IMG/VR virus record: IMGVR_UViG_3300048924_000605 | Coordinates: 16,693-80,692 of that record | Length of the DNA: 64,000 bases | Direction: 5' to 3' (one strand) | From: a virus | Shown here: positions 5,700 to 48,144 of the stretch, in pieces | Position numbering within the stretch: position 1 is the stretch's first letter | Layout of the letters: each line of letters starts with the position of its first letter | The notes under the pieces: generated by a model | The model's input: only the letters and a program-made list of their open reading frames with translations | Told to the model about the DNA's origin: nothing | The model's database searches: none | Position numbers and translations under genes: made by a program

Positions 5700-5725
5700 G
5701 AATCCGTCTCGCGATTCACCTCGTA
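5700..5725 (+). promoter_or_regulatory. Possible ECF-sigma promoter of the fasciclin gene
   Basis: GAATCC-N16-CGTA about 60 bp upstream of the start. Confidence 0.35.
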
Positions 5726-5785
5726 AGGATGAGCGCAACACCCTCAGCGCTCTTGCGCTACGTACTGTCGTCCTGGAGGATTTCT

Positions 5786-15550: not shown

Positions 15551-15718
15551 TGAGGATTACGCGTTCGCAGCGATGCGCCACCGCGATGACGGCGCCTTTC
15601 AATAGTTCAAGAAGGCGCCGCAAGCGGCAGGGAGATGCCTCCGCCAGTTCGGCGGAGGACTGCCGGACTACCTAGCTAGCAAGGCTAAGTTCGGCGAAGG
15701 TATGCAATTGCAAGCGGA

Positions 15719-15844
15719 CTATCTGGACAGCACGACAGTACCGGACGCTTTCCCATTCATTTCGGGCACAAACGTCGGGGGCTTGCAGCCAACGCAAGTC
15801 AAAACCAGAAAAACGAGGGTGAGAACCGCTGCGCGAGCTTTCAT
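15719..15844 (-). CDS. 41-aa putative lipoprotein (below ORF-track cutoff)
   Basis: GGAGA RBS; MKARAAVLTLVFLVLTCVGCKPPTFVPEMNGKASGTVVLSR has basic n-region, h-region and lipobox CVGC. Confidence 0.55.
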   Translation of the reverse strand: MKARAAVLTLVFLVLTCVGCKPPTFVPEMNGKASGTVVLSR

Positions 15845-15988
15845 CTGGTAGATCTCCATTAGGCGATAGCGCGGCGCCTGCCTCCGACGGAGGCATGCCG
15901 CGCTTCAATGTAGCTCGCCGTCCCTAAGCGCCCACTCGGTGAAAGGAGGCTGGAGATTGACCGAACTCACAGTTCATACGGGCGCAAC

Positions 15989-17662
15989 TCAGATTCCCTT
16001 AACGCCCTCCATGCCGGAGCGGTAACCGGTCACCCGCGCTCGACCTTCTTCCTTGCTTCGGTACAGTGCCGCGTCAGCCCGGCGCAGGAGTTGCTCAGGC
16101 GAATCATCTTCTCGCAGATCAGCAACGCCCATCGATAGGCTAAGCGGCACGGTATGCCCTTCAACCGAGACAGGGTGTCGCGTTACCGTTTCTCGCAGGG
16201 CGCTGGCGAGCACCTCAGCCTTTCCTTGGGATAGTCCCAACAGGACAAGCAACATTTCGTCGCCTCCGTATCTGGCCACAATATGCTCATCGGGAAGCCA
16301 GTTACGGATCCTTAGCGCAACGACCCGCAATGCTTCATCGCCCGCCTGATGCCCGTACTGGTCGTTGATCGACTTGAAATAGTCGATGTCGATAAACACC
16401 ACGGACAGATCCGTTCCAGCCTGATGCGCTCTCTCGATGTTCCGACGGAGCATGTCGCCTACGGCGTCTCGCGTGATTACCCCGGTCAGCTTGTCGTAGG
16501 TCCAACGTCGCTGCGCGCTGTCGCGATCAATGCGTACCTGCTCAAGCTTTGCGGTAAGCCCGAGCATCAGCGCGAGACCGCTGAAAGCCAAACCAGCGGG
16601 GAACATCGTCGGCACCCAATCGGGCATGGTCCACCAGTTTTGGTAGCCACCGACCATTACAACGAGTGTCGCCATCACAGGCGCCCAAGCCAGAAGCAGG
16701 AACACGGCTTCACGCTGTCGTCGGGCCAGTGCGCGAGCAATGCCTACGGCAATGGCCGCAAAGGCTGCGAGCATTACGGTATTCCCGAAGTAGGCGCTAA
16801 ACGTGGTCACATGAATCAGCGACACCAGGAGCAGGCCGCCCAGCAACACACTACAAACGTTCAGCAGGACAGCAATCCGCGGCTGTCGTGCTTCCAACTG
16901 CAGGAAGAACACAAGGAACCGGATGCCCGTCAATACTGCCGCAGTATTGATGACGATGTTGGTTCTTCGGTCGAGAGCAAACTCCGCAAGCGCTGGGACG
17001 ACGCCAATCTCCCCTCCCTCAATCATGAGATTTGCGAGCTGAGCCAGCATCGTCAAGCCGAGATAGGCGTAGCCATGTTCGCGCATGGCAGCGAAATAGC
17101 CGAAGGACAGCATCGCCACCAAAAATAGAGCGACGAGAACCGACGTTCGGTACTGCGTGTAGGCGATGTCCGCCTTATGCACGGAGGCCAGAGGCTCAAT
17201 CGCCAAATGCGATGGAATCAGATTGGGCGAAAACACCTGGACATAGAGGACGTCGCCAGAGCGAAGCGCCCCACCGAGAGACACCGAAAGAGCCCGGGCA
17301 GGCCGAGCCGCGTCCGAATCGTCGCCAAGAGCAGTCCGATGTATCGCGCGGGTAGCGCCGGGGAGCCAAACCTCGACTTCCTTCTGATTCGGGGGCGTAA
17401 TCACCAACTGCGGATTGGAATCGGCAGCCGGCGCCGCCTTCAAGACAATGCGCCACCACTGCGGCTCCTTCCGCGTCATGGCTATGTCTACTCCGGCCAC
17501 AGCATTGAATTCCTGGTCCCGAGTTCCTGCCACGATCTCGGCTGCGGGCAACTTCCCCGGCGTATCCAGCCGCTGGAGCGTGAATCCGACAGCCGCTGCA
17601 TGATCGCACCAAGCGCACAATAGGAGCAGAAGGACTAGGCAACGCGGCAATTTCGGCGACAT
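15989..17662 (-). CDS. 7TM-DISM sensor diguanylate cyclase (GGDEM variant), moron
   Basis: Signal peptide, periplasmic domain, ~7 TM, DKLTG, DIDYFKSINDQYGHQAGD, RYGGDEM, RADAALY. Confidence 0.9.
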   Translation of the reverse strand: MSPKLPRCLVLLLLLCAWCDHAAAVGFTLQRLDTPGKLPAAEIVAGTRDQEFNAVAGVDIAMTRKEPQWWRIVLKAAPAADSNPQLVITPPNQKEVEVWLPGATRAIHRTALGDDSDAARPARALSVSLGGALRSGDVLYVQVFSPNLIPSHLAIEPLASVHKADIAYTQYRTSVLVALFLVAMLSFGYFAAMREHGYAYLGLTMLAQLANLMIEGGEIGVVPALAEFALDRRTNIVINTAAVLTGIRFLVFFLQLEARQPRIAVLLNVCSVLLGGLLLVSLIHVTTFSAYFGNTVMLAAFAAIAVGIARALARRQREAVFLLLAWAPVMATLVVMVGGYQNWWTMPDWVPTMFPAGLAFSGLALMLGLTAKLEQVRIDRDSAQRRWTYDKLTGVITRDAVGDMLRRNIERAHQAGTDLSVVFIDIDYFKSINDQYGHQAGDEALRVVALRIRNWLPDEHIVARYGGDEMLLVLLGLSQGKAEVLASALRETVTRHPVSVEGHTVPLSLSMGVADLREDDSPEQLLRRADAALYRSKEEGRARVTGYRSGMEGVKGI

Positions 17663-17790
17663 CGACTAGGACTCCTTCCCGGTGACGGCGGAGGATAGCG
17701 GCCCCTTCGGCTGAGTCGTGGTGCGCCGGGTCACGGTTCCCGGTCCATCCTCGGGAATTTCCCGCCCGCCCAGGTCCGATAGCGTCGTTT

Positions 17791-17817
17791 TCTTGGATTT
17801 TTCCAAGAAAATGTTAA
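17791..17817. promoter_or_regulatory. Near-palindromic box TCTTGGATTTTTCCAAG-N3-ATGTTAA, copy 1
   Basis: Same 17-mer plus ATGTTAA also at 59001; upstream of the DGC gene. Confidence 0.55.
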
Positions 17818-17821
17818 GAAC

Positions 17822-18064
17822 TCAGCGATCTATTGCTGGTTCGACCGTCCAATGACACAGTCTCTGGCCCGTCAGGTTGTGGGCCAAAATCTGCCTTGCG
17901 GTCAGGTCCGTCAACACGTCCTGCCGCGACACCAAGATGGGCCGTGCCCAGGCGCAGTCGCCGTTTTCAATCTCGCGACCATTGGTCACGCAGCTGCTCA
18001 GCAGCAGTACCAGGAACAGCATTGGCCACGCGGCTGTCGATGCCGGTCGGAAGTCGCAACACAT
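17822..18064 (-). CDS. o-spanin (Rz1-like lipoprotein)
   Basis: Lipobox LSSC; CAWARPI...DVLT..TARQILAHN; overlaps the i-spanin 3' end. Confidence 0.8.
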   Translation of the reverse strand: MCCDFRPASTAAWPMLFLVLLLSSCVTNGREIENGDCAWARPILVSRQDVLTDLTARQILAHNLTGQRLCHWTVEPAIDR

Positions 18065-18272
18065 CGGTTTCTACCTCGCCTCGAATTTGCGCATCCGCCG
18101 CTTCACGTTCGGCAGCCGCAGTTCGTGCCCGTGCCTCCTCCTGATCGACGCGGTCCGCCGCTTCCTTCTTGGCGCGCCGGCTCCCGGCGAGGCGGCCAAT
18201 CCCGAATACCGTCAAGATCGCTAGAACCGCGGCGACGGCAGCAGCGCCCCAGGCCTGCAAGCGCGCGATCAT
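17967..18272 (-). CDS. i-spanin (Rz-like)
   Basis: N-terminal TM plus coiled coil, directly after endolysin. Confidence 0.8.
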   Translation of the reverse strand: MIARLQAWGAAAVAAVLAILTVFGIGRLAGSRRAKKEAADRVDQEEARARTAAAEREAADAQIRGEVETDVLRLPTGIDSRVANAVPGTAAEQLRDQWSRD

Positions 18273-18745
18273 GCGATGTGACCGCCGGCCTTCTGGTAGA
18301 CCGCGAGCAGGGCTTCCAGCGGATGCTCGCGCTGGCCGTAACCGGCATTGGGCAGCGACGCCCAGGTCTTCCGCGATTTGCGGATCGCCGATGCAATCCA
18401 GCCCGTTTGGATGTCTGCCAACGAACCGTTCTCGCGCAGAAGCTCAATCGCCGCCCGATCCTGCGATGCCGGGCCGAAGTCCGGCAGGTCCAGTCGCGTC
18501 TGCAAGCTATTCCAGGTACGCCACAGGAATTGGTAGCGACCGGCCGCGGTGGAGTGGATCCGATACTTCGGCAGCCAGACCAGCAATCTCGGGTGCTTGG
18601 AGTAGTCGGTGAAGCAGTCGCCGCCCACCAGCACGTCGTAGCCGCGCTGCTTGCCGAATCGCTCTACGCCTTCGGCATGGGCGATCATGTCCAGGAATGC
18701 GACGACGTTCTGGCCGCCGGCCTCATCAGCGGTCAATCGTGCCAT
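18269..18745 (-). CDS. Endolysin, lambda R-like lytic transglycosylase
   Basis: AFLDMIAHAEG, STAAGRYQFL, DFGPASQD, WASLP..GYGQ. Confidence 0.93.
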   Translation of the reverse strand: MARLTADEAGGQNVVAFLDMIAHAEGVERFGKQRGYDVLVGGDCFTDYSKHPRLLVWLPKYRIHSTAAGRYQFLWRTWNSLQTRLDLPDFGPASQDRAAIELLRENGSLADIQTGWIASAIRKSRKTWASLPNAGYGQREHPLEALLAVYQKAGGHIA

Positions 18746-25911: not shown

Positions 25912-27842
25912 CGCATGAAACGGCTGGAGATCACCCGGCGGCGGCCGGAAACAGAAAGGCCGCCCGGAGAGGCGGCCTTTGACGGAATGGGTAGGGGTGG
26001 TTCAGTTGGATCAGGCGGGCGCGGCGGGCGCACCCCCACCGATCGCTCGAGCTCGCGCCAGTGGCGCTCTTCGAAACGATCGACACCGGCCTGCATCGCC
26101 GCGGCACGCGCCATGACGTAGCAGTCCAGCGCTTCGTTGCGGTCGCGGCGCTTTTCCCACACCCGTTGCGGATAGCCGTGCCGGTCCCGACGGGTGATCA
26201 AGTGCTCGGCGGTCAGCTGCTGCACGAACTCGCCGTCTACCTTTGGTAGATGGACGTAGCCCGCAGGGAACGCGGACTGGCCGTCCGGCCCGATCTCGAT
26301 CGACAACCGCAGCGCGTTGTACAACTCCAGCTTGGCGATGCCGCCGGCCACGGCGAACAGCTTGAGGCCGCGCCGCAGGCGCTTGCCGGGAATGCTCACA
26401 TCGACCGCGGTCGGGATGCCGATCAAGGCGGCGCCGCTACCGACACCCTTCATCGGCAGCAGGCGCGGATCGTGCGCATCGCGCGCGAACGCATAGGCCT
26501 CCTGGGTGGCGTAGCCGGTATCCAGGCCGAGCCGGGTTAGCGGCAACAGCGCGCCGGAGGCATGGGTCCATTGCTCGCGCAGCAGGCTCGCCAGCTCTGC
26601 CCAGACTGCGGCGCGCGCGGTGTCGCCCATCAAGACACGATGCTCGACCAGCCAGGTCTCACGCTCGCGACCGAACGCCCAGACCGAGACCTCGATTCGG
26701 TCCTTCTGCACGTCGGCGCCGCCGGCCAGCAACAGGCCGCCGGCCGGCACGGTGCCGATCCGGTAATCCTCGCGCCGCTCCAGCAACCGCTCCCAATCCG
26801 GGGCTTCGCCTTCCTCTTCCCAGGTCTCGCCCAGTTCGGTGTTCTTGAACGCCTTGAGCGCGGTTGCCGAACCCTGCGCCGCTTCCCACGCCGCGGCGAT
26901 ATCGGCCCAGCTGCGCCAGCCAACGGGCGAGTACAGCGAGGACAGGTGGTAGCCCGCCGTCTTGCCGCGGTTCTGCGGTGCCGTCGCGACCCACTGGCCG
27001 GCGGCGAGCATCGTCGTCTTCTGGTGCTCGCCGATGGGCTGTTCACAGGACTCGCAGATGTAGCGGGTCGAGCGCGGGTCGCCCCAGGTCCAGCGCAGTT
27101 GCTCGAACCGCAGCCATTGTTGGTGGACGCAGTGCGGGCACGGCACGAAGAATCGCCGCTGGTCCGAGGCCAAGTACTCGCGCTCGATGGTGCTGGCACC
27201 AGCAATCGTCGGCGTCGACACCAGCAGAATCTTGCGCCGGATGAAGGTCCGGGTGCGCGCCTCGGCCAGCGCGACCGCATCGCCCTCGCCTTCCACGTCG
27301 CGCGGGTAGCCGTCCACTTCGTCCAGGAACAGGTAGCGCACCGGCATCGAGCGCAGGCCGACCGCGCTGTTGGCGCCGGTCAGGACCAGGACGCCGCCGC
27401 GGAACTCCTTGGCGAGGATCGTGTTGCCCGAGTCCCGCGCGCGCGAGGGCGCAATGCGCTCGCGCAGCGACGGCGACTCTTCGATCAGCGGGTCGACGCG
27501 CTGCTTCGAATTGCGCTTGGCCATCTCGACCGTGGGCGCCACGGCCATCATCGGTCCCGGCGCGCACGCGATCACGTAGCCGATCCAGTTATTGCCGCAT
27601 TCGGTCCCGCCGACCTGCGCGCCTTTCATGAACACGACGCGCTCGGTCGCCGAGGCCGGCGACAGGTCGTTCATGATGTCGCGCAGGTACGGCGTTCGCG
27701 CAGTGCGCCAGCGCCCCGGCTCAGACGACGAGGTGCTCGACAGCACGCGGTCGCGGTCGGCCCAATCCGAAACGTCCAGGAAGGGATCGGGCGTCAGACC
27801 GTCGCGCCAAGCACGCGCGACGTTCTCATGGCCGTCGTACAA
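25908..27842 (-). CDS. Terminase large subunit (GpA family)
   Basis: KGAQVGGTE, LFLDEVD, STPT, CPHC zinc finger, DVQKDR, RNEALDC. Confidence 0.96.
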   Translation of the reverse strand: MYDGHENVARAWRDGLTPDPFLDVSDWADRDRVLSSTSSSEPGRWRTARTPYLRDIMNDLSPASATERVVFMKGAQVGGTECGNNWIGYVIACAPGPMMAVAPTVEMAKRNSKQRVDPLIEESPSLRERIAPSRARDSGNTILAKEFRGGVLVLTGANSAVGLRSMPVRYLFLDEVDGYPRDVEGEGDAVALAEARTRTFIRRKILLVSTPTIAGASTIEREYLASDQRRFFVPCPHCVHQQWLRFEQLRWTWGDPRSTRYICESCEQPIGEHQKTTMLAAGQWVATAPQNRGKTAGYHLSSLYSPVGWRSWADIAAAWEAAQGSATALKAFKNTELGETWEEEGEAPDWERLLERREDYRIGTVPAGGLLLAGGADVQKDRIEVSVWAFGRERETWLVEHRVLMGDTARAAVWAELASLLREQWTHASGALLPLTRLGLDTGYATQEAYAFARDAHDPRLLPMKGVGSGAALIGIPTAVDVSIPGKRLRRGLKLFAVAGGIAKLELYNALRLSIEIGPDGQSAFPAGYVHLPKVDGEFVQQLTAEHLITRRDRHGYPQRVWEKRRDRNEALDCYVMARAAAMQAGVDRFEERHWRELERSVGVRPPRPPDPTEPPLPIPSKAASPGGLSVSGRRRVISSRFMR

Positions 27843-27845
27843 CGA

Positions 27846-28382
27846 TTACTCCAGGCGGGCGACGAAGTCCCCGAGTTCGAACAGGTGTTGCCGCACCTCG
27901 CGCTCCAGCGCGACGTGCATCGAATGCGGGTCGATGCCTAGTTCGGCGGCGAGCATCGAGCTGATCCGCGCAGGCCAGTTAAGCCAGGCGTCGCGCTCCG
28001 CGCGCGCCAGGGCGAAGACTTGGCCGACCGCCTGCTGGCGATCGATCAGCTCGCCGCGCAGCTGCGCAATGCGCAGCTTGTGATGTTGGGCCTTGAGGAC
28101 TTCGTTGGCGGTTCGAGCCTGGGCGTAGCTGTTGCTGGTGGGGACGCCACCGGCACCGTCGTCCACCAGCGTCGGTGCCGCCGCGCGCGCGCGCGCCGGC
28201 CGACTGCGCGTGCCGAGGCTCGACTGCGCCGGGTCGGTACTCGCGTCCCATTCCGCGTCGGCACGGACCGCGTCGATAGTGCCATCCGGCAGCGCCGTGA
28301 TCCGTCCGGACTTGATTGCTTTATGGACGGCGGTATCGGACACGCCGCGATGGCGCCCGTAGGCGCGAATGGAAATACCCAC
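27846..28382 (-). CDS. Terminase small subunit (Nu1-like)
   Basis: N-terminal wHTH SIRAYGRHRGVSDTAVHKAIKSGRI; directly upstream of terL. Confidence 0.85.
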   Translation of the reverse strand: MGISIRAYGRHRGVSDTAVHKAIKSGRITALPDGTIDAVRADAEWDASTDPAQSSLGTRSRPARARAAAPTLVDDGAGGVPTSNSYAQARTANEVLKAQHHKLRIAQLRGELIDRQQAVGQVFALARAERDAWLNWPARISSMLAAELGIDPHSMHVALEREVRQHLFELGDFVARLE

Positions 28383-28455
28383 AGGTCGTCAATGGCAGGT
28401 CTGGGCCTCCGCGACCGCCGGCCATCGGCGCAGATTCGGATAAAAGGAAGAGGGA

Positions 28456-28487
28456 ACACCCCAACGCCCGGCGAGGCGTTGGGGTGT
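28456..28487 (-). terminator. Terminator of cassette 1
   Basis: 13-bp stem ACACCCCAACGCC/GGCGTTGGGGTGT; pyrimidine/T-rich tail on minus strand. Confidence 0.7.
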
Positions 28488-28504
28488 GCGCTCTCACGCG
28501 TGCG

Positions 28505-29035
28505 CTAGTTGCGCGGTTCGAACTCAGCCGCGTCGCGCGCACGCTGGAGGTTCTTCACCGCCGCGCGCAGCCCCTTCTGGTAGCCGGCGTCCCGCACGTC
28601 CCAGACCTCCAGTAGCTTGATCCGTTGCAACAGCCGGTCCAGCTCATGCACCGGCAGCGCGCTGTACTCCGGCTCGTCGCCTTCGAGGTACCGATGGATA
28701 TGCGTCAGCAGCGCGCGAAGCGTCAGCTCATTCGCGCCCAACTCGGTCGGCATCAAGCGGCGCTTGAACCAATCGTCTGACTGCTCGACGGCGAACTCCA
28801 ACGGAGCCAGTTCGTAGCCGCAGCCTTCGATCATCCAGCTGATGATGTCCGGGTCCACGCGCCCCCTCTGATGCCCCATGCAGCGGGACGCCAGTAGGTG
28901 CGAGAGACCGTAGCAGCCGTACAAATGCATCTTCACCTCCGGCTCGAAGGCGGGCACCGTCGACATCAGTAGCCGCTCGATGCGGTCGCCCAGCGCGCGC
29001 AGATCCGCATTCGACTTCGCTATCCATTCGTCCAT
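28505..29035 (-). CDS. Cassette 1 hypothetical protein
   Basis: GAGGA RBS and ATG 29035 downstream of the conserved element; paralog of 29596-30102. Confidence 0.75.
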   Translation of the reverse strand: MDEWIAKSNADLRALGDRIERLLMSTVPAFEPEVKMHLYGCYGLSHLLASRCMGHQRGRVDPDIISWMIEGCGYELAPLEFAVEQSDDWFKRRLMPTELGANELTLRALLTHIHRYLEGDEPEYSALPVHELDRLLQRIKLLEVWDVRDAGYQKGLRAAVKNLQRARDAAEFEPRN

Positions 29036-29075
29036 TTCGCTTTCCTCTTCGTCACCGCGCCGTCGCGGCGACGAC

Positions 29076-29147
29076 ATGAACGCTTCAAGTGGATTGAATC
29101 GCAAGCGCTTCCGCCCACGTCTCGCTACCGAGACAGCCGACGGACAG
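29076..29147 (-). promoter_or_regulatory. Conserved upstream element 1
   Basis: CTTG-N15-GAAGCGTTCAT at 29105-29076; CTGTC repeats at 29147 and 29136. Confidence 0.85.
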
Positions 29148-29173
29148 GAACAACATCTGTGGGAAGAACGAAC

Positions 29174-29202
29174 ACCCCAGCCCTATCATCGGGGGCTGGG
29201 GT
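29174..29202 (-). terminator. Terminator of cassette 2
   Basis: ACCCCAGCCC/GGGCTGGGGT stem. Confidence 0.65.
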
Positions 29203-29217
29203 CTACGCTCTCCCGAC

Positions 29218-29466
29218 TCAGTTTGCCTCGTCGTTCAACGCCTTAATCACTGCGCCGAGATCCATATCAGGCCCGAAGTCCACGGCGCCCCGCTCGGCCA
29301 GTATCTGGACGATGTTGACGCAAGTGGCAGCCAGCTGCTGTGCGGCGATCAATTCTTCGTCGCTGAGTTTCCGCGGATCGCCGTCGACCATATCCTCGAG
29401 AACGCCCTCGCAGTCCCTCAAGGCCACCAGCGTGTTATGGAATCGGCAGTACGACATGTTCGTCAT
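29218..29466 (-). CDS. Cassette 2 small acidic phage protein
   Basis: NMSYCRFHNTL..LRDC, a recurrent small phage protein pattern. Confidence 0.8.
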   Translation of the reverse strand: MTNMSYCRFHNTLVALRDCEGVLEDMVDGDPRKLSDEELIAAQQLAATCVNIVQILAERGAVDFGPDMDLGAVIKALNDEAN

Positions 29467-29505
29467 TTCTGTTCTCTAGGTTCGCCGCGTCATTGCGGCG
29501 AGCAG

Positions 29506-29577
29506 ATGAACGCTTCCTTCGCCAAGGAAGCCAAGCGGAAGATGCGCCGCTCGCGAGTGAAGACAGGGTTCCGACAG
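29506..29577 (-). promoter_or_regulatory. Conserved upstream element 2
   Basis: Motif at 29535-29506; CTGTC at 29577 and 29566. Confidence 0.85.
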
Positions 29578-29595
29578 CTTCGTGCAGCGGCGCGC

Positions 29596-30102
29596 CTACT
29601 CCGGAAACTGCCCGAGCGCTTGCGCCAACCCGCTGACCGCGAAGCTGATGCCGTGCTGGTACTCGGCGTCGCGCGGCCGGAATACGTACAAGCGCTCGAC
29701 CAGATCCCGCGCCTGCTCGACCCACTGGCGCGGCGTCAGCGCCGGCCGACACTGGAGATAGACGTCCATTTGGCCGGCCGCAGCGGCGAATGCAGCGCTG
29801 ACGGCAGCGTTGCGCCGCTTGGCTCGCCGCCCCCTGAAGCCGCCCCGCACGCGCCGCTCCCACACATGCAGCTCTTCATCTGCGGCACGCACCCGCGCGC
29901 ACAGTTCGACCGCTTCAACGCGCCGCGCCCGGTCCAGGCGCGACCATGGTTTCAGGAACCGCGCCAGCGCCTCGCACGCCTGGGTCGTGCAGACCCCGTA
30001 CTCCCACACCGGCTCCAAATCGGTTGGCGCTTCTTCGACCAACCAACGAATCCGCTTGGGCAGCGTGCCCAGCGTGAACAGTGCGTCCTGTGCGTCTTGC
30101 AT
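29596..30102 (-). CDS. Cassette 3 hypothetical protein
   Basis: GGAGA RBS, ATG 30102; RDAEYQHGI matches RDAGYQKGL of cassette 1. Confidence 0.72.
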   Translation of the reverse strand: MQDAQDALFTLGTLPKRIRWLVEEAPTDLEPVWEYGVCTTQACEALARFLKPWSRLDRARRVEAVELCARVRAADEELHVWERRVRGGFRGRRAKRRNAAVSAAFAAAAGQMDVYLQCRPALTPRQWVEQARDLVERLYVFRPRDAEYQHGISFAVSGLAQALGQFPE

Positions 30103-30137
30103 CTGATTTCTCCGGCCACCGCCTCTTGCGGCACGGC

Positions 30138-30201
30138 ATGAACGCTTCAATTTCGGCGAAATCCAAGCGGTGCCGCCGCGTTCTGGACAGCAGGCGGACA
30201 G
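30138..30201 (-). promoter_or_regulatory. Conserved upstream element 3
   Basis: Motif at 30167-30138; CTGTC at 30201 and 30190; back-to-back with element 4. Confidence 0.85.
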
Positions 30202-30213
30202 CTTCGCCCGCTC

Positions 30214-30296
30214 CTGTCTGTCAGCTGTCCGGACACGCAGAATCGCCGCGCGCCCTAGCGAAAGCGCTTGGCTTCCAGCCGAACCGAAGCGTTCAT
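30214..30296 (+). promoter_or_regulatory. Conserved upstream element 4
   Basis: CTGTC at 30214 and 30225; motif at 30267-30296. Confidence 0.85.
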
Positions 30297-30327
30297 GCGT
30301 CCACCCAACGCGGCCAAGGAGGCCACC

Positions 30328-30714
30328 ATGAACGACACGCTATTCGCCGAAATCGCCCTAGAGCACATCGGGATTACCACACTGGAAAGTCGCAAGCGCG
30401 ACGATCTGGACTTCTACAGCGTCGCAGTCTGGGAGCTTCGCGACGTCATGCGGTCGGCGTATCTGGCCGGATACGCCGCCGCGCTGCGCGCGGCGCAGGG
30501 CGCCGCACCCGCATTGCCCACAGAGCGCCACACCATAACGGGCGAAGCCTGGCTAGGCGCGGGCGAAGCGAGCGACTACGGCGATGTTCCGAACGGCTAC
30601 ACGGTAACCACCCTGCCGATTCCCGAGGTGGACCTGCTGAGCTACCGATGGCAGGAGCGGCGCGCTTGCGAGGTGTTGATCCCGATGGCCATCCGGCACC
30701 GCCGCATCGACTAA
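30328..30714 (+). CDS. Cassette 4 DUF6900-like protein
   Basis: AGGAGG RBS; ITTLESRKRDDLDFYSVAVWEL...AYLAG. Confidence 0.8.
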   Translation: MNDTLFAEIALEHIGITTLESRKRDDLDFYSVAVWELRDVMRSAYLAGYAAALRAAQGAAPALPTERHTITGEAWLGAGEASDYGDVPNGYTVTTLPIPEVDLLSYRWQERRACEVLIPMAIRHRRID

Positions 30715-30729
30715 GGCACATCGCCACCG

Positions 30730-30756
30730 AAGCCCCCGCCCGAGCGGGGGCTTTTC
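30730..30756 (+). terminator. Terminator of cassette 4
   Basis: AAGCCCCCGC/GCGGGGGCTT stem plus T-run. Confidence 0.8.
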
Positions 30757-30773
30757 TGTTCCGAACTCCGAAG

Positions 30774-30856
30774 CTGTCCGACACCTGTCCGTGAACGAGA
30801 ACGATCGTTCTTCTTCCCAGAAACCGCTTGGCTTCATCCGAGAAGGAAGCGTTCAT
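30774..30856 (+). promoter_or_regulatory. Conserved upstream element 5
   Basis: CTGTC at 30774 and 30785; motif at 30827-30856. Confidence 0.85.
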
Positions 30857-30891
30857 GCGTCCACACCAACGCGGCCACGGAGGCCACCACG

Positions 30892-31116
30892 ATGAACGCC
30901 AAAGACCTGCTCAACGACTACCTGCGCGGCATGGCGCAGCACGAGCGCGGCATCTTCACGCTGCTTAGCGAGGAAGAGATCACCGCCCTAGCACAAGCCG
31001 AATTGAAGCGGCGCGCGGCCGTCACGCTGCAGCGCTTCGACTCCGAGATCATCGCCGGCTTGACGACCGGCGACATCTCGCTCCACAGGGCCATCGCCGA
31101 TGTCTGCACCGCCTGA
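30892..31116 (+). CDS. Cassette 5, gene a (hypothetical)
   Basis: GGAGG RBS downstream of element 5. Confidence 0.72.
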   Translation: MNAKDLLNDYLRGMAQHERGIFTLLSEEEITALAQAELKRRAAVTLQRFDSEIIAGLTTGDISLHRAIADVCTA

Positions 31117-31291
31117 CGCCGAACTCTGGTTCCTCAAGGCGCTGCACACGTCGGTATTGCTTGCCGCCGCCAACGGAACCCTCGACCTCAACCAACTCGC
31201 CCGCGATGAGCTGATCCGTCGCGGGCTGGACCCCGAAGGCGAGTGGGTTGGCCCCAGCCGCGCGCGGGAACTGCACCACCCCAACCACTAA
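31100..31291 (+). CDS. Cassette 5, gene b (small phage protein)
   Basis: AAANGTLDLNQLARDELIRRGLD..GEWVG pattern. Confidence 0.75.
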   Translation: MSAPPDAELWFLKALHTSVLLAAANGTLDLNQLARDELIRRGLDPEGEWVGPSRARELHHPNH

Positions 31292-31305
31292 CTAGGAGAA
31301 CAACC

Positions 31306-31887
31306 ATGAGCAACATCGAACTCACCACCAACCAGCGCGCCGTTTTGGAACTGGCCGTGGCCACCGAAGGCCGCATCGAAGCCTACCCCGCCGGCCTGCT
31401 GGGCGGCGCGCGCACCAGCGTCGTGCGCGGCCTGCTGCGCAATGAACTGGTCGAGCCGCACGACGCCGGCTACCGCCTGACGGCGGACGGCTACGCGGCC
31501 ATCGGGGTCGAGGCGCCGCCCAGCAACACCGGCGCCGGCGGCAGCGACAGCAAGGCGCCGAACACCGCCGCCCCCGGGAACGAGACCGCGACCACCGCGC
31601 TGGTCGCGCCGAGCAAGCCCAATCGCGCCGCGCGCGGCGACACCAAGCTGGCCACGGTGGTCAGCCTGCTGATGCGCCCCGAGGGCGCCACCATCGCGCA
31701 GATCATGGCCGCGACCGAATGGCAGCAGCACTCGGTGCGCGGGTTCCTGGCCGGCGCGGTCAAGAAAAAGGGCTACACGACCACGAACAGCAAGGAAGGC
31801 GACGGAGAGCGCGTGTACCGCATCGCGACCGATAACGCGAAAGCCGATGCCGCAAGCGCGAATCCGCAGGCCGATGAGGAGGAGTGA
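31306..31887 (+). CDS. Cassette 5, gene c: DUF3489 (winged-HTH-like) protein
   Basis: AGGAG RBS; TKLATVVSLLMRPEGATIAQIMAATEWQQHSVRGFLAG..KKKG...RVYRI. Confidence 0.88.
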   Translation: MSNIELTTNQRAVLELAVATEGRIEAYPAGLLGGARTSVVRGLLRNELVEPHDAGYRLTADGYAAIGVEAPPSNTGAGGSDSKAPNTAAPGNETATTALVAPSKPNRAARGDTKLATVVSLLMRPEGATIAQIMAATEWQQHSVRGFLAGAVKKKGYTTTNSKEGDGERVYRIATDNAKADAASANPQADEEE

Positions 31888-31895
31888 ATCCTAAT

Positions 31896-31921
31896 GCGAG
31901 CCGGGCACCTGCCCGGCTCGC
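31896..31921 (+). terminator. Hairpin after DUF3489 gene
   Basis: GCGAGCCGGGCA/TGCCCGGCTCGC stem, weak T tail. Confidence 0.5.
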
Positions 31922-32003
31922 TGTCTCAGACCTGTCCAACGCAATCTGCAGGGCGAATTACACGGAAACATCGCTTGATGTTCCGCCGCGATGAAGCGTT
32001 CAT
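31921..32003 (+). promoter_or_regulatory. Conserved upstream element 6
   Basis: CTGTC at 31921 and 31932; motif at 31974-32003. Confidence 0.85.
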
Positions 32004-32028
32004 GGCCTCCCAACCACGGAGAACAACC

Positions 32029-32310
32029 ATGCACGACGCAGCATTAGCCAACGACGCCCACGACCTAACGGCGCTACCGGAGCGCCTGATTCAACTGGTC
32101 GAAGACACCTTGTCCAACGACGAAATCAGCACCGACGCCGAGCTTGTGCAGTACCTGGCCCACAACGGCCTTTCCCGCGAGAACGCCCTGCATGCCCTGC
32201 GCTATCGGGAGATTTACCTCTCGAATCTCTGGGTCGCAGGATGCACGCCGATTCGCGGCGGCCTGCGCATCCGCCTCAACGTAGCGACGGGCCGCTACGA
32301 ACTCGCATGA
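32029..32310 (+). CDS. Cassette 6 hypothetical protein
   Basis: GGAGA RBS, ATG 32029; LSNDEISTDAELVQYL. Confidence 0.75.
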   Translation: MHDAALANDAHDLTALPERLIQLVEDTLSNDEISTDAELVQYLAHNGLSRENALHALRYREIYLSNLWVAGCTPIRGGLRIRLNVATGRYELA

Positions 32311-32344
32311 TCAGGATGTCGCCGCGCGCTGCGCGGCGGTATTC

Positions 32345-32417
32345 CTGTCCGACCGCTTAGCGGACTTGGACAGCGGGTGTATGGCGTCTTGGCTTCCAGG
32401 CGAAAAGAAGCGTTCAT
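32345..32417 (+). promoter_or_regulatory. Conserved upstream element 7
   Basis: Single CTGTCC at 32345 (with inverted GGACAG); motif at 32388-32417. Confidence 0.8.
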
Positions 32418-32439
32418 GACCTCCCCAACGGAGACCACC

Positions 32440-32763
32440 ATGACGAGTCGAATTCTTCCGCCGTTCCAACTGCAAGTGCGCTTCAGCCGCAATCCTCGCA
32501 ACGCCCGAGCGATGATGCGCGAGTTGACCGGCTATCACGTCGACCCCGAACTTGCCTGGGTCATCGAACAGAAGACGATGACGCAGTCCGAGTACCGCGC
32601 CTTTGAACGAGATTTTACCCAGCCGCAACATTGGATCATGCCGCTCAACAGCCGGCCGACACACTGCATCAGGGTCGTCGCACCCAGAATGCCGACGCTC
32701 TACGTCCGAGCCGAAGGTGCGAACTACGCCCGTCTCGTTGGGCTGGCTGTCGAGGAGAGCTAA
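32440..32763 (+). CDS. Cassette 7 small phage protein
   Basis: GGAGA RBS; FSRNP...CIRVVAP.MPTLYVRAEGANYARLVG. Confidence 0.75.
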   Translation: MTSRILPPFQLQVRFSRNPRNARAMMRELTGYHVDPELAWVIEQKTMTQSEYRAFERDFTQPQHWIMPLNSRPTHCIRVVAPRMPTLYVRAEGANYARLVGLAVEES

Positions 32764-32794
32764 GTGCTGCCCCGGCGCGGCGCGCGGCGCCGCG

Positions 32795-33937
32795 TCAGGG
32801 TCGCAACGCCCTCAGAATTTCGGCGGCGACTTGCGGGACGATCGCATTGCCGGCGGCGCGCAATCGAGGTACTCGGGCGGGTAGCCCATGAGCCAGAAGA
32901 CGAATTCCGGGGTCAGGGATCCGGCGGCCGGCGAGGGTTCGACCTGTCGTCCAAGCATCCCATTCACCGGTGCGCTGCCAAAGCTCGTCGCGTCCTTGTG
33001 ATCTCGGGTCGTCGGCGTCGCCCACAGCGCCGGTGGCGCCAGCCCCAGCGGGTCGCCGTACAACGCCGTGTCGATGGCCTGCGCCATCGGGTGTTGCGTC
33101 AGCGCCACCGTGTGCTCCTGCTCCGAACTCTGGTACGCCTGGGCCGGCAGCGGCGCCGTTGCTCCGCTGCCGAAGGACTGCCTGGGGCTGCCCTTCTCCC
33201 CGTCGCTCGCGCGCGGTGTACTCCAGACCGCCTTCACCACCCCCGGCAGACCATTGCGTCGCTCGGCCGCAAAGTCGCCCCGCTTCTCCGGATCGTTCGC
33301 CGTCGCGGTCGGCCAGACCGCCTTCGCCGCCACCTGAAGGCTGGTGATCGCTTTTCGGCGGCCGCCCGGCATCCGGCGCTTCATCGCCAGGTGCGCTGCC
33401 GGGGACTTGTTGTCGTCGTTCGCCACCGCGGTCGGCCAGACGCTGCCCGACGATCCAGACCCGATCTCGCCGGTGCGGGGCATTGACGGCGCAAGCTGGA
33501 ACAACAATCGCCCGGCTGGCGTAGCCTTCGCCCTCCAGGTCAGCAAGAACTCCGTCGAGCCCCAGCGCGATGAGCCCAGCAACGTTTTCGCCCAGGAATA
33601 GAGCGGGTCGCGCTTGTGCAATAAGGCGATGCAGTTCTGGCCAGAGGTGGCGGTCGTCGGCTTGCGCGCGCTGGTTGCCGGCGACGCTGAACGGCTGGCA
33701 GGGGAAGCCACCGGTCCAGAGCGGCGCGTCATCCGGCCAGGCCGCGAGTCGGGCGGCGTAGGCGAACCCGCCGATACCGGCAAAGAAGTGGCATTGGGCG
33801 TAGCCGCGGAGATCGTCTGCTGAGACAGATCGGATATCGCGGTCATCGACATCGCCGGTCGGGATAATGCCCGCCGCCATCAAGTTCTTCAGCCACTGGC
33901 ACAGATACAGGTCGTTCTCGTTGTAATAGACCGACAC
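32795..33937 (-). CDS. C5 cytosine DNA methyltransferase, alpha-like chain lacking motif IX
   Basis: GTG 33937; FFAGIGG (I), GFPCQPFS (IV), ENV (VI), HRRDRVW (VIII), GNAIVP (X). Confidence 0.9.
   Translation of the reverse strand: MSVYYNENDLYLCQWLKNLMAAGIIPTGDVDDRDIRSVSADDLRGYAQCHFFAGIGGFAYAARLAAWPDDAPLWTGGFPCQPFSVAGNQRAQADDRHLWPELHRLIAQARPALFLGENVAGLIALGLDGVLADLEGEGYASRAIVVPACAVNAPHRRDRVWIVGQRLADRGGERRQQVPGSAPGDEAPDAGRPPKSDHQPSGGGEGGLADRDGERSGEAGRLCGRATQWSAGGGEGGLEYTARERRGEGQPQAVLRQRSNGAAAGPGVPEFGAGAHGGADATPDGAGHRHGVVRRPAGAGATGAVGDADDPRSQGRDELWQRTGEWDAWTTGRTLAGRRIPDPGIRLLAHGLPARVPRLRAAGNAIVPQVAAEILRALRP
32812..33483 (-). CDS. Nested alternative-frame methyltransferase beta-like chain (start uncertain; frame open from 33852)
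   Basis: Four W(P/S/A)T repeats then LTPEFVFWLMGYP, resembling motif IX. Confidence 0.7.
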   Translation of the reverse strand: MPRTGEIGSGSSGSVWPTAVANDDNKSPAAHLAMKRRMPGGRRKAITSLQVAAKAVWPTATANDPEKRGDFAAERRNGLPGVVKAVWSTPRASDGEKGSPRQSFGSGATAPLPAQAYQSSEQEHTVALTQHPMAQAIDTALYGDPLGLAPPALWATPTTRDHKDATSFGSAPVNGMLGRQVEPSPAAGSLTPEFVFWLMGYPPEYLDCAPPAMRSSRKSPPKF

Positions 33938-35178
33938 TAGGCAACGTCCTCGACCTCCGCACCCGCCGCGATGAACGCGACGCCGTCCGAAGCGCGAATC
34001 GCCTGCAGACCGGTGTAGTCCTGCCAACGGCGAACGATCACGTCGACGTATTTGGGATCCAGTTCGATCAGCCGCGCGCGGCGGCTGGTTTTCTCGCAGG
34101 CGATCATGGTCGTACCCGACCCACCGAACGGGTCCAGCACCAGATCGCGGGTCTTGCTGCTGTTGCGGATGGCGCGCTCGACCAGTGCCACCGGCTTCAT
34201 CGTCGGATGCAGCTCGTTGCGCGCGGCTCGGTCGATGAACCAGACGTCGCCCTGGTCGCGCGCGCCGCACCAGAATCGGTCGTTACCGTCGCGCCAACCG
34301 TAGAGGATTGGCTCGTACTGCCGCTGATAGTCGGCGTGGCCCAGCGTGAACTTGTTCTTCGCCCAAATGATGAAGGTCGACCAGCGACCGCCCGCAGCGC
34401 GGAACGCGGTCTGCAACCGGTCGAGCTCGGACGACGACATGGCAATGTAGATCGCGCCCTTCGTCACCCGCAGCATCTCGGTGCAGGTCGCTTGCAAGAA
34501 GGTGCCGAAGTCGTCGCCCAGGTTGTCGTTGAGGATCGGGCGGTGTTTACCGCGTAGCTTGTCCTTCGGGTTGTTGGCGTAGTCGACGTTATAGGGCGGA
34601 TCGGTGAACGTCATGTCGATCAACTCGTCCCCGAGCAGCGCGGCGTAGTCCTCGGCGCACGTGGCGTCGCCGCACAACACTCGATGCTCTCCGCAGGTCC
34701 AGACATCGCCTGGGCGCGAGATCGGATGTTCTTCCGGCTCGGGTGCCGCGTCCTCCTCCGTCTGACCTTCGCCCGATACCGCAGCCAGCATGTCCTCGAT
34801 CTCGTCGTCATCGAAGCCGGTCAACGCCAGATCGAATTCGAGCGCGTCCAGGTCGGCCAGCTCCAGTTGCAGCAATTCCTCGTCCCAGTTCGCCCAGGTG
34901 GCGGAACGGTTCGCCAGCAGCCGGAAGGCTTTGACCTGGGCCTCGGTCAGTTCGTCCGCCAGGACGACCGGCACCGACTCCAAGCCCAGCTTGCGCGCAG
35001 CCTTGAGGCGGAGATGGCCGTCGACCAGTTCGCCGTTGCTACGCACCACGCACGGAATGCGAAATCCGAACTCGCGGATCACCGCGGCCATCTGGTCTAC
35101 GGCGTGGTCGTTCTCGCGCGGATTGCGCGCATAAGCGATCAGCCGGTCGACCGGCCAGTGCTCCAGTTGCAGGTTCAT
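33937..35178 (-). CDS. ParB-N domain N4/N6 DNA methyltransferase
   Basis: YARNPR..VDGHLRLKAA; TDPPYN, HPTMKP, DPFGGSGTT, ELDPKY. Confidence 0.93.
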   Translation of the reverse strand: MNLQLEHWPVDRLIAYARNPRENDHAVDQMAAVIREFGFRIPCVVRSNGELVDGHLRLKAARKLGLESVPVVLADELTEAQVKAFRLLANRSATWANWDEELLQLELADLDALEFDLALTGFDDDEIEDMLAAVSGEGQTEEDAAPEPEEHPISRPGDVWTCGEHRVLCGDATCAEDYAALLGDELIDMTFTDPPYNVDYANNPKDKLRGKHRPILNDNLGDDFGTFLQATCTEMLRVTKGAIYIAMSSSELDRLQTAFRAAGGRWSTFIIWAKNKFTLGHADYQRQYEPILYGWRDGNDRFWCGARDQGDVWFIDRAARNELHPTMKPVALVERAIRNSSKTRDLVLDPFGGSGTTMIACEKTSRRARLIELDPKYVDVIVRRWQDYTGLQAIRASDGVAFIAAGAEVEDVA

Positions 35179-35771
35179 TTCGCTCGCAGTGGGCGGCGCG
35201 CGCGGCCGAGCGCACCGGGCACATGCGGCCAAGTGTCGCCGACCACGGCGGAGTAGATGGTCATCATGGGCAGCCGGTAGGTCTGCGCCAGTTCGTTGTA
35301 GCGGCGACCCGCGCGCCGGTGATCGCGCAACTCGGTCACCAGGGATTCGGTGAGGTTGGCCGACGGATGTCGCTCGCCGCGGTTGTCCGGCGACGTACCG
35401 TGCAGTACCCGGTCGGCGCAATTCTCCTTCGGCGTGGCCCAGCGCAGGTTCGCGACCCAGTTGTGGCTGCGAACCCCATCGTTGTGGGCGACTTGGTGCC
35501 GCGGCGTCGGCGGCGGCCCCAGGAAAGTCAACGCCACTAGGCGATGAACATTGAAGTAGCCGTACCGGCCGTCCCGACTCAGCGCAACCTGCAGATAGCC
35601 ACCGGTGTCCGGTTTCGGCTTGAGCAGCTTCCCGGCCGGATGCTGTCGGTATGCGATCGACCGCCGGATCTTGCCGCGGTCGGAAACCTCGTAGCTCGGA
35701 TAGTCCGAGATCTGCCGCCAGCGCTCCGCGCCACCGTCGATTAGCGATGGTGGACGCGCGTTGGGAATCAT
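35175..35771 (-). CDS. NUMOD4-HNH homing endonuclease
   Basis: WRQI..Y..YEVSDRGKIR, VHRLVA..F, HNDGVRSHN..NLRWAT. Confidence 0.9.
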   Translation of the reverse strand: MIPNARPPSLIDGGAERWRQISDYPSYEVSDRGKIRRSIAYRQHPAGKLLKPKPDTGGYLQVALSRDGRYGYFNVHRLVALTFLGPPPTPRHQVAHNDGVRSHNWVANLRWATPKENCADRVLHGTSPDNRGERHPSANLTESLVTELRDHRRAGRRYNELAQTYRLPMMTIYSAVVGDTWPHVPGALGRARRPLRAK

Positions 35772-37154: not shown

Positions 37155-39071
37155 ATGTCCGCCAACAGCCCGTCTCCCGCCCATGCCGACGGTTCGGCCG
37201 GCCATGCCAAGACCGGTCTCGCCGGATTGGTGGTCGGCGCCATCGGGGTGGTGTTCGGCGATATCGGCACCAGTCCGCTATACACGCTGAAGGAAGCCTT
37301 CTCGCCGCACTATGGTCTGACTCCCGATCAGCACACCGTGCTCGGCATCCTGTCGCTGGTGTTCTGGTCGCTGATGATCGTGGTGACCTTGAAGTACGTC
37401 GCGGTGATCATGCGCGCCGACAACGACGGCGAGGGCGGCATCATGGCACTCACTGCGCTGACCCAGCGCACGGTCAAGCACAACCCGCGCGCGGTCTACG
37501 TCATCGGCGTCCTCGGCATCTTCGGCGCCTCACTGTTCTTCGGTGACGGCGTAATCACGCCGGCGATCTCGGTGCTATCGGCCGTAGAGGGACTGGAAGT
37601 GGCGGCACCGCACCTTGACCGTTTCGTCGTGCCGATCACCGTGGCGGTGCTCGTCGTGCTGTTCCTGGCACAGCGCTTCGGTACCGAGGTAGTGGGCAAG
37701 GCGTTCGGTCCGGTGATGATCCTTTGGTTCGTTTCGCTCGGCGCGATCGGCATCTACAACATCGTCGATGCGCCGCAGGTGATCCGTGCGCTCAATCCGA
37801 TTTGGGGCCTGCGCTTCTTCATGGAGCACAACTGGCATGCGGTGTTCGTGCTCGGTGCGGTAGTGCTGGCGGTGACCGGCGGCGAGGCGCTGTACGCCGA
37901 TATGGGCCACTTCGGCAAGTGGCCGATCCGTCTGGCCTGGACCTACGTCGCCCTGCCGGCGCTTACATTGAACTATCTCGGCCAAGGCGCGCTGATGCTA
38001 GGCAAGCCGTCCGCGGTCGGCAATCCGTTCTTCGAAGCGGTTCCGGCATGGGCGTTGCTGCCGATGGTCGGCCTAGCCACTGCGGCGACGGTGATCGCCT
38101 CGCAGGCAGTGATCACAGGCGCGTTCTCGGTCGCGCGCCAGGCCATGCAACTCGGCTACATCCCGCGTATGGCGATCAAGCACACCTCGCGCGAGACCAT
38201 CGGCCAGATCTACATTCCGGCGGTGAACTGGATGCTACTGGTGCTGGTGGTTGTCTCGGTGGTCGGCTTCGGCAGTTCGACCGCGCTGGCCACCGCCTAC
38301 GGCGTTTCAGTGACCGGCACCATGCTCATCACGAGCGTACTAATGATCATCTATCTTCGCGGCAACTCTCGTATTCCTGCGCCTCTGTTCTGGTTGTTGG
38401 CGGCGATCTTCGTGCTGGTTGATCTGGCATTCTTCTACGCCAATATCATTAAGTTCATGGATGGGGCCTGGTTCCCCCTACTGCTGGGCGTGGTTCTGTT
38501 CACCATGATGCGCACCTGGCGCCGCGGCCGCGAACTTCTGCACGAGGAAGTGCGCAAGGAAGGCATCTCGCTCGATAGCTTCCTGCCCGGCCTACTGCTG
38601 GCGCCGCCGGTGCGAGTGTCGGGCACGGCAATCTTCATGACCGCCGACAAGGGCGTGGTGCCGCACGCGCTGTTGCACAACCTCAAGCACAACAAGGTGC
38701 TGCACGAGCGCAACGTGTTCCTCACCGTCGAAACGCTTGGAATGCCGCACGCACCTAAGGAGAAGCGGCTCAAGATCGAAGCCATCGGCAACGATTTCTA
38801 CCGCATTCTGATCCGCTTCGGCTTTATGGAAGTGCCCGACGTGCCGCTGGCGTTGATGCGCTCGTGCGACGCCGGCGGCGCCTACTTCGATCCAATGACG
38901 ACGACGTACTTCGCCAGCCGCGAGACCGTGGTCGCCAGACGCCACCGTGGCATGCCGATCTGGCGCGACCGCCTGTTCGCCTTCATGCACCGCAACGCGG
39001 CGCCAGCGACCGGGTTCTTCCGCATTCCGGGCAACCGTTTGGTCGAACTGGGTTCGCCGGTCGAGATTTGA
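37155..39071 (+). CDS. kup: KUP/HAK/KT potassium transporter, moron
   Basis: [60 protein letters not shown]. Confidence 0.97.
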
Positions 39072-47981: not shown

Positions 47982-48060
47982 GGGAAGGTTCTCGTCGTCG
48001 ACGTGGTGCTGTCGGGACGAAAGACTGCGCGAAGACGAGCACGAAAGAAAAGTAGCAACG

Positions 48061-48144
48061 GCATAGAAACGCGTGGGCCGTTTCTATGCATTTCTATGCA
48101 CGATCAGCGAAACCGCTAAAAACCCGGCGAAACGCGCATAGAAA
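48061..48144. promoter_or_regulatory. Four GCATAGAAA operator-like boxes in the divergent control region
   Basis: GCATAGAAA at 48061 and 48136; reverse complement TTTCTATGC at 48081 and 48091. Confidence 0.7.

Follow-up and report, generated by a model that had tools for sequence, protein, structure and literature searches.

A repeated, promoter-shaped element heads small gene units in a lineage of temperate phages of Proteobacteria

A 64,000-nucleotide stretch of DNA (the window; positions 16,693 to 80,692 of the 80.7-kb IMG/VR provirus record IMGVR_UViG_3300048924_000605), which belongs to a Lysobacter-type prophage of an AcaML1-like lineage, carries seven copies of a 30-base element, CTTG-N15-GAAGCGTTCAT, between the packaging gene terS and two DNA methylase genes. 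The best explanation, which we consider probable, is that each copy is a promoter that an operator overlaps, confined to a single lineage of temperate phages and heading a unit of its own. The units would share one order: an upstream hairpin terminator, a pair of CTGTC-N6-CTGTC boxes, the core, a short leader that would hold a conserved inverted repeat or an anti-Shine-Dalgarno stem, a ribosome-binding site (RBS), and one to three small genes. As a set, they would form a conserved module lying between terS and the methylases that close the early operon.

A first-pass annotation, made from the letters of the window, had reported seven copies with invariant spacing, and a pattern scan bears this out: the copies start exactly at 29105, 29535, and 30167 on the minus strand and at 30267, 30827, 31974, and 32388 on the plus strand, with zero mismatches. 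Dinucleotide-preserving shuffles put the chance expectation at 0.11 matches, and none of 100 shuffles reached 8; the provirus record holds no additional copy when up to one mismatch is allowed. Each copy is followed by a small open reading frame (ORF), as the annotation also said: a GGAG-type RBS precedes every ATG, and the motif end lies 22–40 nt from it (40, 39, 35, 31, 35, 25, and 22 nt at A, B, C, D, E, H, and I, respectively). There are nine ORFs, A to I, of which F and G are predicted from the layout to be co-transcribed with E. Most units do end in a hairpin, with RNAfold energies of −28 to −40 kcal/mol after A, B, D, G, H, and I and a weaker hairpin after C; a strict terminator scan of the region called no terminator, though RNAfold gives strong hairpins, one with a clear T-tract.

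What kind of signal is this? In its layout, the element is promoter-shaped, yet it is not a standard promoter. TTG occupies −35 to −33, followed by a 17-bp spacer, GTTCAT at −12 to −7, and C/A at −1/+1; GCGTTCAT spans −14 to −7, and the pyrimidine/purine predicted start lies 7 nt downstream. Logos built from 170 and 143 non-redundant sites conserve more than the search pattern: an A/T-rich tract at −46 to −40 just before CTTG, GCTTC after CTTG, a mid-spacer GAA, C and then a purine at positions 35/36 (−1/+1), and a CACCAnCAAC-like leader start at +1 to +10. The −35 hexamers (TTGGCT, TTGATG, and TTGCGA) are of the σ70 kind, with an invariant TTG and at most four of six bases matching TTGACA; the spacing is precisely that of σ70, and the aligned sites keep C/R where −1/+1 would fall. 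The −10 hexamer departs from the σ70 pattern: instead of TAnnnT, it is GTTCAT, or GTCAAT/GTGAAT in variants, with the T at −7 kept. Adenine at −11 is the most critical base for σ70, and this position is T in every variant. Because the −11 adenine is missing, we infer that host RNA polymerase alone would use the element poorly and that a phage protein would be needed to help or control it. No σ70-consensus promoter was found by a promoter scan anywhere in 27800–33200, and the divergent C/D junction is just 100 bp long; these genes are thus left with no other visible promoter. Several known signals were tried and rejected: a σ54 promoter (no GG-N10-GC), a σ32 promoter (CTTG-to-CAT distance about 4 bp too long), σ28 and MerR-type promoters with 19–20-bp spacers (spacing or sequence), and cosB/terminase binding sites (the copies lie 400–1100 bp apart and are tied to RBSs).

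If the element is promoter-shaped, could it be the host that reads it? A promoter for a host alternative σ, either of the extracytoplasmic function (ECF) type or σ32-like, would let the prophage genes join a host stress regulon. The geometry suits a holoenzyme, the core contains the CGT(T) of an ECF −10, and the CTTG start and CAT end recall σ32. However, the −35 lacks the ECF AAC, the overlong CTTG-to-CAT stretch stands against σ32 here as well, the motif is kept across three bacterial classes that differ in their alternative σ factors, and it is absent from host genes. All exact copies in five whole Lysobacter genomes (61/61) fall in tight prophage arrays of 2–7, and the reversed control pattern gives 0; in the complete L. 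enzymogenes genome, the looser TTG-N18-GCGTTCAT has 21 matches, 15 in two arrays and six scattered, which is about chance. Since the copies are confined to prophage arrays, a host intergenic repeat, which the annotation had named as a refuting condition, is rejected and a host alternative-σ regulon, disfavored by the same result, appears very unlikely; the annotated view of a shared, phage-specific signal upstream of separate units is upheld.

Beyond Lysobacter, the element is widespread among phages. A scan of IMG/VR finds many contigs with 2–6 motif copies, always upstream of an RBS and an ATG. A 20-base form occurs in 55 stretches of species-representative genomes, against about one expected, in Lysobacter spp., many Burkholderiales and Rhodocyclales, Methylomonas, and others; with its variants, the motif is found in Beta- and Gammaproteobacteria and Acidithiobacillia, and the common denominator of the variants is CTTGGCTT-N14-GCGTnnAT. 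Closest to the window are two L. enzymogenes Lj46 prophages, which share 74–84% of its nucleotides across the array. Acidithiobacillus phage AcaML1 and Ralstonia phage YO164_3 have the same arrangement (terS, then a DUF3489 gene and small genes, then two methylases) and the core variant CTTGGCTT-N7-GAACAGCGCGTTCAT; further lineages have GCGTCAAT or GCGTGAAT, at times both in one phage. AcaML1 (L180, JX507079) also has, behind a motif copy, an unannotated DUF6900-like ORF at ~5566–5871 (+) that is 48% identical to ORF D of the window and overlaps gp33, annotated as “terS” and encoded on the opposite strand; TerS of the window resembles AcaML1 gp23 instead. The annotation knew of no description of this system, and we likewise found no publication on the motif: exact-string literature searches with GAAGCGTTCAT and GCGCGTTCAT returned unrelated primers only, and neither the DUF3489 and AcaML1 literature searched nor the phage 437 paper has anything about it.

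The element is also tied to the start of a gene. An RBS and an ATG follow on the same strand at 178 of 188 related sites, of which 174 have them 20–50 nt downstream. In 14 relatives, the orthologous E-type promoters form an ungapped alignment in which fixed blocks (terminator, CTGTC boxes, an AGAACG-N2-CGTTCT palindrome, core, and leader) stand between diverged spacers. That conservation runs into the leader, where stable stems are predicted, would suit an element that works in RNA, as a processing site or as the shared leader of longer transcripts. The B and A/C leaders have GCCGC-N6-GCGGC at a fixed position directly after the predicted start, and the H, I, and DUF2924 leaders have CTCC stems predicted to pair with the RBS. 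But these leader classes vary by gene family under a constant upstream core, CTTG is invariant 30 nt upstream although the spacer in between varies, C and D, being divergent, cannot come from one precursor, and the leader stem, whose pairs hardly vary, shows no covariation; a function in RNA is therefore highly improbable. For GCCGC-N6-GCGGC itself, both an RNA hairpin and a DNA palindrome serving as an operator are possible.

Upstream of the core, the CTGTC-N6-CTGTC boxes have an 11-bp period; the window contains six pairs where chance would give 0.2, and every pair lies upstream of a copy of the motif. The start of the distal box is 53 nt upstream of CTTG for units D, E, and H, 42 nt for A and B, and 34 nt for C; these distances recur in relatives, and the boxes are limited to the Lysobacter clade. 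A Pho box consists of two CTGTCAT repeats with an 11-bp period that overlap the −35 region; here the period fits, but the half-sites are CTGTC(C/T)N rather than CTGTCAT and lie 34–53 nt upstream of the −35. The dyad GCTTC-N10-GAAGC that the annotation saw in several copies is present in four of the seven (B, D, E, and I). Would the element then be an operator and nothing else, a set of sites for ORF G or another phage DNA-binding protein, with transcription starting elsewhere, for example by read-through? The conserved stretch of about 50 bp, with its several TTC/GAA dyads, is more than RNA polymerase alone needs, and G is modeled as a tandem winged-helix protein. Still, the units diverge from a 100-bp junction that has no other promoter-like site, strong hairpins bracket most of them and would block read-through, and about 170 sites keep a fixed orientation and RBS distance, for which an operator alone would have no need. 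An operator without a promoter is accordingly quite unlikely, and initiation at a promoter that an operator overlaps is the reading followed below.

The array occupies the gap between the early-operon end, with its DNA methylases, and terS. The left arm (C, B, and A) reads into terS, and D to I, the right arm, converge on the early operon and point away from the late one, against the early-to-late direction. Four units had been described as antisense to the late operon: they are on the plus strand, as claimed, but they diverge from that operon rather than overlap it. On the minus strand, ORF A (28505..29035; 176 amino acids (aa)), a helical bundle of the A/C family found only in Lysobacter prophages, follows copy 1 (29076..29105), a CTTGCGATTC variant with CTGTC boxes at 29132..29147; the terminator-like hairpin after A (28447..28476; RNAfold −34.4 kcal/mol), which passes into a T-rich tail, is the last element before terS. 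ORF B (29218..29466; 82 aa; B family, phrog_8760), which differs between close relatives more than any other unit, follows copy 2 (29506..29535), which has the perfect 8-bp dyad GCTTCCTT/AAGGAAGC; its boxes are at 29562..29577, and its terminator-like hairpin is at 29173..29202 (−39.2 kcal/mol). ORF C (29596..30102; 168 aa), a paralog of A, follows copy 3 (30138..30167). The divergent control region (30186..30229) holds the box pairs of C (30186–30201, minus) and of D (30214–30229, plus).

On the plus strand, copy 4 (30267..30296) precedes ORF D (30328..30714; 128 aa), which has an N-terminal DUF6900 domain and is followed by an intrinsic-terminator-like hairpin with TTTTCTGTT (30730..30760; sequence reading and RNAfold). 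Boxes and the palindrome AGAACGATCGTTCT (30774..30811) come before the E promoter, where copy 5 (30827..30856) leads into ORF E (30892–31116; 74 aa), ORF F (31100–31291; 63 aa; phrog_22970), and ORF G (31306..31887; 193 aa), a DUF3489 protein modeled with two winged-helix domains and a disordered linker. The hairpin after G touches the next boxes (31921–31936; 31896..31936 together) and is followed by copy 6 (31974..32003), a CTTGATGTTC variant that is kept at the H-type promoters of relatives, and by ORF H (32029..32310; 93 aa), in whose 5′ untranslated region CTCC is predicted to pair with the GGAG of the RBS. Copy 7 (32388..32417) heads ORF I (32440..32763; 107 aa), which has a hairpin after it at ~32769–32801. 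Units D and E resemble each other far beyond the motif: promoter and leader are about 88% identical over 72 bp (30260–30331 versus 30820–30892), which suggests duplication or gene conversion of an entire promoter-leader module.

What do these promoter-like elements serve? The cargo set consists of the first RBS-preceded ORF behind each of the 188 related sites, and its 172 unique proteins fall into about nine large families and eight small ones. Array maps of 24 loci show that the right-arm order D-E-F-G-H-I is conserved, although F, G, and I have promoters of their own in some phages and lack them in others. The left arm consists of 2–7 units of two families only, A/C and B, and is missing in distant lineages (AcaML1, YO164_3, L021, L040, and L017). 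The annotation had proposed modular, swappable cargo and had asked whether the motif stays constant while the cargo varies among related prophages. The motif is indeed kept, with variants; the cargo is mostly conserved in family and order, and the left arm alone is variable. The module as compared here is thus a conserved one, and shuffling-cassette behavior is limited to the Lysobacter-specific arm. The nine ORFs had also been called mostly unrelated and of unknown function; no named family was found for them, but A and C are paralogs of one family, so not all nine are unrelated.

Close relatives display a mosaic in which the alignment breaks exactly at unit B. This break, the left-arm copy number of 2–7, and the gain or loss of promoters before F, G, and I may, by comparison of arrays, reflect recombination between repeats. 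Might the repeats themselves be recombination sites, attC-like or of the invertase type, at which the DUF2924/serine-recombinase module shuffles or inverts cassettes? The repeats occur in both orientations, one adjoins the recombinase operon in relatives, and the number of left-arm units is variable. Yet in 24/24 mapped arrays both arms point the same way with respect to terS and the methylases, with no inversions, the right-arm gene order is conserved, and the motif, which is asymmetric, keeps to its distance from the RBS; homologous recombination between repeats is a simpler account of copy-number change, which makes dedicated recombination sites extremely unlikely.

In a reading that follows the first-pass annotation, the promoter is real and the cargo would be anti-defense or host-takeover genes expressed on entry. 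The small proteins of unknown function, their own promoters, and the two adjoining methylases suit this idea, and A/C and B are genus-restricted and variable in copy number, as is often the case with counter-defense genes. The right-arm families, however, keep their order across classes, like core genes; one member is, in its model, a DNA-binding-type regulator; and no cargo protein matches an anti-defense, defense-related, toxin, or other named family or fold in Pfam, PHROGs, PDB sequences, and fold searches. An anti-defense regulon thus found no backing and is, in our estimate, unlikely. The A/C family counts 33 members among 5.8 billion proteins, every one of which comes from Lysobacter and bears a hypothetical annotation, and its model (predicted local distance difference test (pLDDT) score of 85) has no convincing relative (Foldseek E > 0.7; VIA best Z of 7.1 on helical bundles; nothing in a PDB profile search). 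The B family has no PDB match, and ORF I has no usable match in the ESM Atlas. Profile comparison connects A/C and B via one chimeric member only: at 9870–10265 (−) of locus L093, a B-family protein has a C-terminal extension that matches the C-terminus of A/C (hhalign E 2e-5), making it a domain chimera.

One of the nine large families, DUF2924, links the element to integration. DUF2924 is the first gene of a serine-integrase operon and is headed by the motif in 24 betaproteobacterial loci; in AcaML1, a fourth motif copy lies directly upstream of gp4, the head of the gp4-gp1 recombinase operon. Since the motif heads the integrase operon in these relatives, where the same promoter would also drive it, an establishment-type regulon is plausible. 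The annotation had called the array a candidate establishment regulon, and AcaML1 and the 24 loci lend this partial support; the window’s own integrase operon has lost the motif. In the window, the DUF2924/serine-integrase module spans 49.9–52.9 kb, and two short resolvase-domain ORFs (50380–51146, plus) stand upstream of the full serine recombinase (51104–52471) in the DUF2924 operon.

If host RNA polymerase needs help at this element, which protein provides it? ORF G matches DUF3489 (Pfam PF11994) with E 1.4e-25 and 89.6 bits against a cut-off of 29.5, and it is the sole protein present in every array mapped. Relatives of G are encoded in at least 586 IMG/VR stretches, by a search that started from G; 62 of the 80 best G loci have an exact CTTG-N18-GCGTTCAT, against 0.07 expected in total, and the remaining 18 have GCGT(C/G)AAT or GTGTTCAT variants. 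Because G is in every array and essentially all G loci have the motif, G is the best candidate for a reader or controller of the element. It is probably a tandem winged-helix, DNA-binding protein: the model (overall pLDDT 80) has winged-helix domains at residues 1–65 and 112–175 (both with pLDDT > 90), each with a three-helix bundle and a β-hairpin wing, linked by a disordered stretch of about 45 residues, and the best Foldseek matches are all winged-helix domains (TFE-alpha, RPC34, ArsR, MarR, and PapI; E 0.01–0.1). In aligned proteins that are about 40% identical overall, the putative recognition helices (GGARxKV and TxWQxHTVRG) do not vary, just as the two DNA boxes, spaced by about two helical turns, do not; each domain of G could bind one box. 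A bolder version of this idea is a private initiation system, in which the tandem winged-helix DUF3489 protein reads CTTGGCTT and GCGTnnAT and lets host RNA polymerase open promoters that lack the −11 adenine; we put this forward tentatively, as rather doubtful.

Several observations weigh against the promoter reading or against the part given to G. The T at −11 makes use by σ70 doubtful, and the transcription start at the element is one predicted from sequence. Among about 45 provirus ORFs, Pfam and PHROGs identify no σ factor or RNA polymerase. G could equally be a repressor, or be unrelated to the motif, because co-occurrence of the two follows shared ancestry; and as an activator inside its own regulon, G would need something else to start the circuit. 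GCCGC-N6-GCGGC shows no covariation in 41 class-1 leaders, where the pairs hardly vary, and an RNA hairpin there is a putative one. Lastly, the DUF2924 gene of the window has only a degenerate motif remnant, so that an analogy to the CII-dependent promoters of phage λ depends on the relatives.

Functionally, the nearest analogues would be the activator-dependent phage promoter classes, such as those that depend on λ CII or T4 MotA. The CII-dependent promoters pI, pRE, and paQ are non-consensus, need a phage activator, and serve the integrase gene and anti-lytic transcripts. The regulon described here would be most like such a set, with one dedicated class of non-consensus promoters for integration genes and for transcripts against the lytic flow; however, the TTGC-N6-TTGC box of CII is absent from the logos, no CII homolog was identified, and the integrase link is seen only in relatives. 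At T4 middle promoters, where MotA and AsiA appropriate σ, a GCTT-containing box near −30 replaces the −35 and the −10 is consensus. The phage-private GCTT box resembles the element, and an activator with two domains and a flexible linker resembles the modeled G, which is no more than a lead; in contrast to T4, the −10 here is not consensus, G is a tandem winged-helix rather than a double-wing protein, and no AsiA-like gene was seen.

Other comparisons concern the unit rather than its control. Like morons, these would be autonomous gene units with their own promoter and terminator inside a prophage, but morons are acquired individually and have unrelated promoters, while the units here share one promoter and form a conserved module. 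The annotation had named the conserved upstream (CUP) repeats of IncN plasmids and the start-associated sequences (SAS) of cluster K mycobacteriophages, with their extended form (ESAS), as analogues. CUPs are much longer repeats, and SAS overlaps the translation start; both are conserved elements repeated before several small mobile-element genes, but neither has the sequence or the −35/−10 geometry of our element, which lies 22–40 nt upstream of the ATG, and the analogy proves loose. The closest described system is the promoter-early stem-loop (PeSL) cassettes of T4-type phages, in which a repeated promoter and a stem-loop terminator are reported to bracket small unknown genes, the promoters being strong canonical σ70 early promoters of lytic phages in hyperplastic regions rich in ORFans (Arbiol et al. 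2010; PMC2839356). The unit logic is the same: hairpins of −28 to −40 kcal/mol stand between the units here. Recombination between repeats, which alters the number of PeSL cassettes, may also account for the left arm with its 2–7 units. The differences are that the −10 here is non-canonical rather than that of a strong σ70-like early promoter, that the phages are temperate, that the motif is conserved across classes, and that most of the cargo is conserved in order.

Why would it matter who reads the element, and when? Phage promoter classes (T4 middle and late, λ CII-dependent, and P2 Ogr-dependent) have each revealed a new way to redirect host RNA polymerase. If the private initiation system proposed for DUF3489 were real, it would be a functionally new σ appropriation or initiation factor in more than 500 prophages of three proteobacterial classes, in charge of an establishment-type regulon. 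At present, the finding is a well-defined, directly testable hypothesis and not a new mechanism. The signal, very strictly conserved and lacking the −11 adenine, is common to a large group of temperate phages that has hardly been studied; their hosts are Proteobacteria from soil, from water, and from plants (Lysobacter, Ralstonia, Burkholderiales, Rhodocyclales, and Acidithiobacillus). It is tied to DUF3489, a family to which no function has been assigned. Identifying its reader would give DUF3489 a function and explain the timing of integration and accessory genes, and, with the reader in hand, the element would offer a compact, host-orthogonal promoter for these bacteria.

On the minus strand of the window lies a λ-like head module, with terS (27846–28382), terL, a λ-family portal, major capsid protein E, and the tape measure. 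In the loci L194–L204, which have no left arm, only ~50–90 nt separate the terS start codon from the rear end of the divergent motif that comes first; this leaves little space for a separate late promoter, and late transcription may come from the early operon, crossing the right arm in antisense. The early operon, also on the minus strand, encodes AAA_24, a PD-(D/E)XK nuclease, a D5-type primase, a RuvC-like resolvase, an HNH endonuclease, and the two DNA methylases that the annotation had placed next to the array and that profile matches support: a ParB-N6/N4 methylase (33937–35421) and a C5 methylase (32795–34270, minus). In this frame, the C5 methylase ORF covers no more than positions 64–162 of the Pfam DNA_methylase profile; an overlapping 346-aa frame (32812–33852) has no match, consistent with a frame problem. 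Inside the early region, on the opposite strand, is a complete gene for a Kup-type K+ transporter (37155–39071, plus; K_trans, E 2e-189), which is missing from the related proviruses compared and looks like a moron. At the head of the early operon, in a large intergenic region (48043–48770), four exact copies of GCATAGAAA in both orientations are packed within 85 bp (48061–48144); this cluster is probably an immunity operator set.

The flanks of the prophage include two large ORFs that were considered as polymerases and rejected, being an RHS toxin and a Tle1-like effector. The first, a 1756-aa RHS-repeat protein at 13225–18495 (plus) of L191, extends into the window at 1–1803; the second, at 53767–58119 (minus), is a 1450-aa Tle1-like phospholipase of a type VI secretion system with a peptidoglycan-binding domain. 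The record to the left of the window carries EAL, response-regulator/LuxR, VirB5-like, and VirB6 genes.

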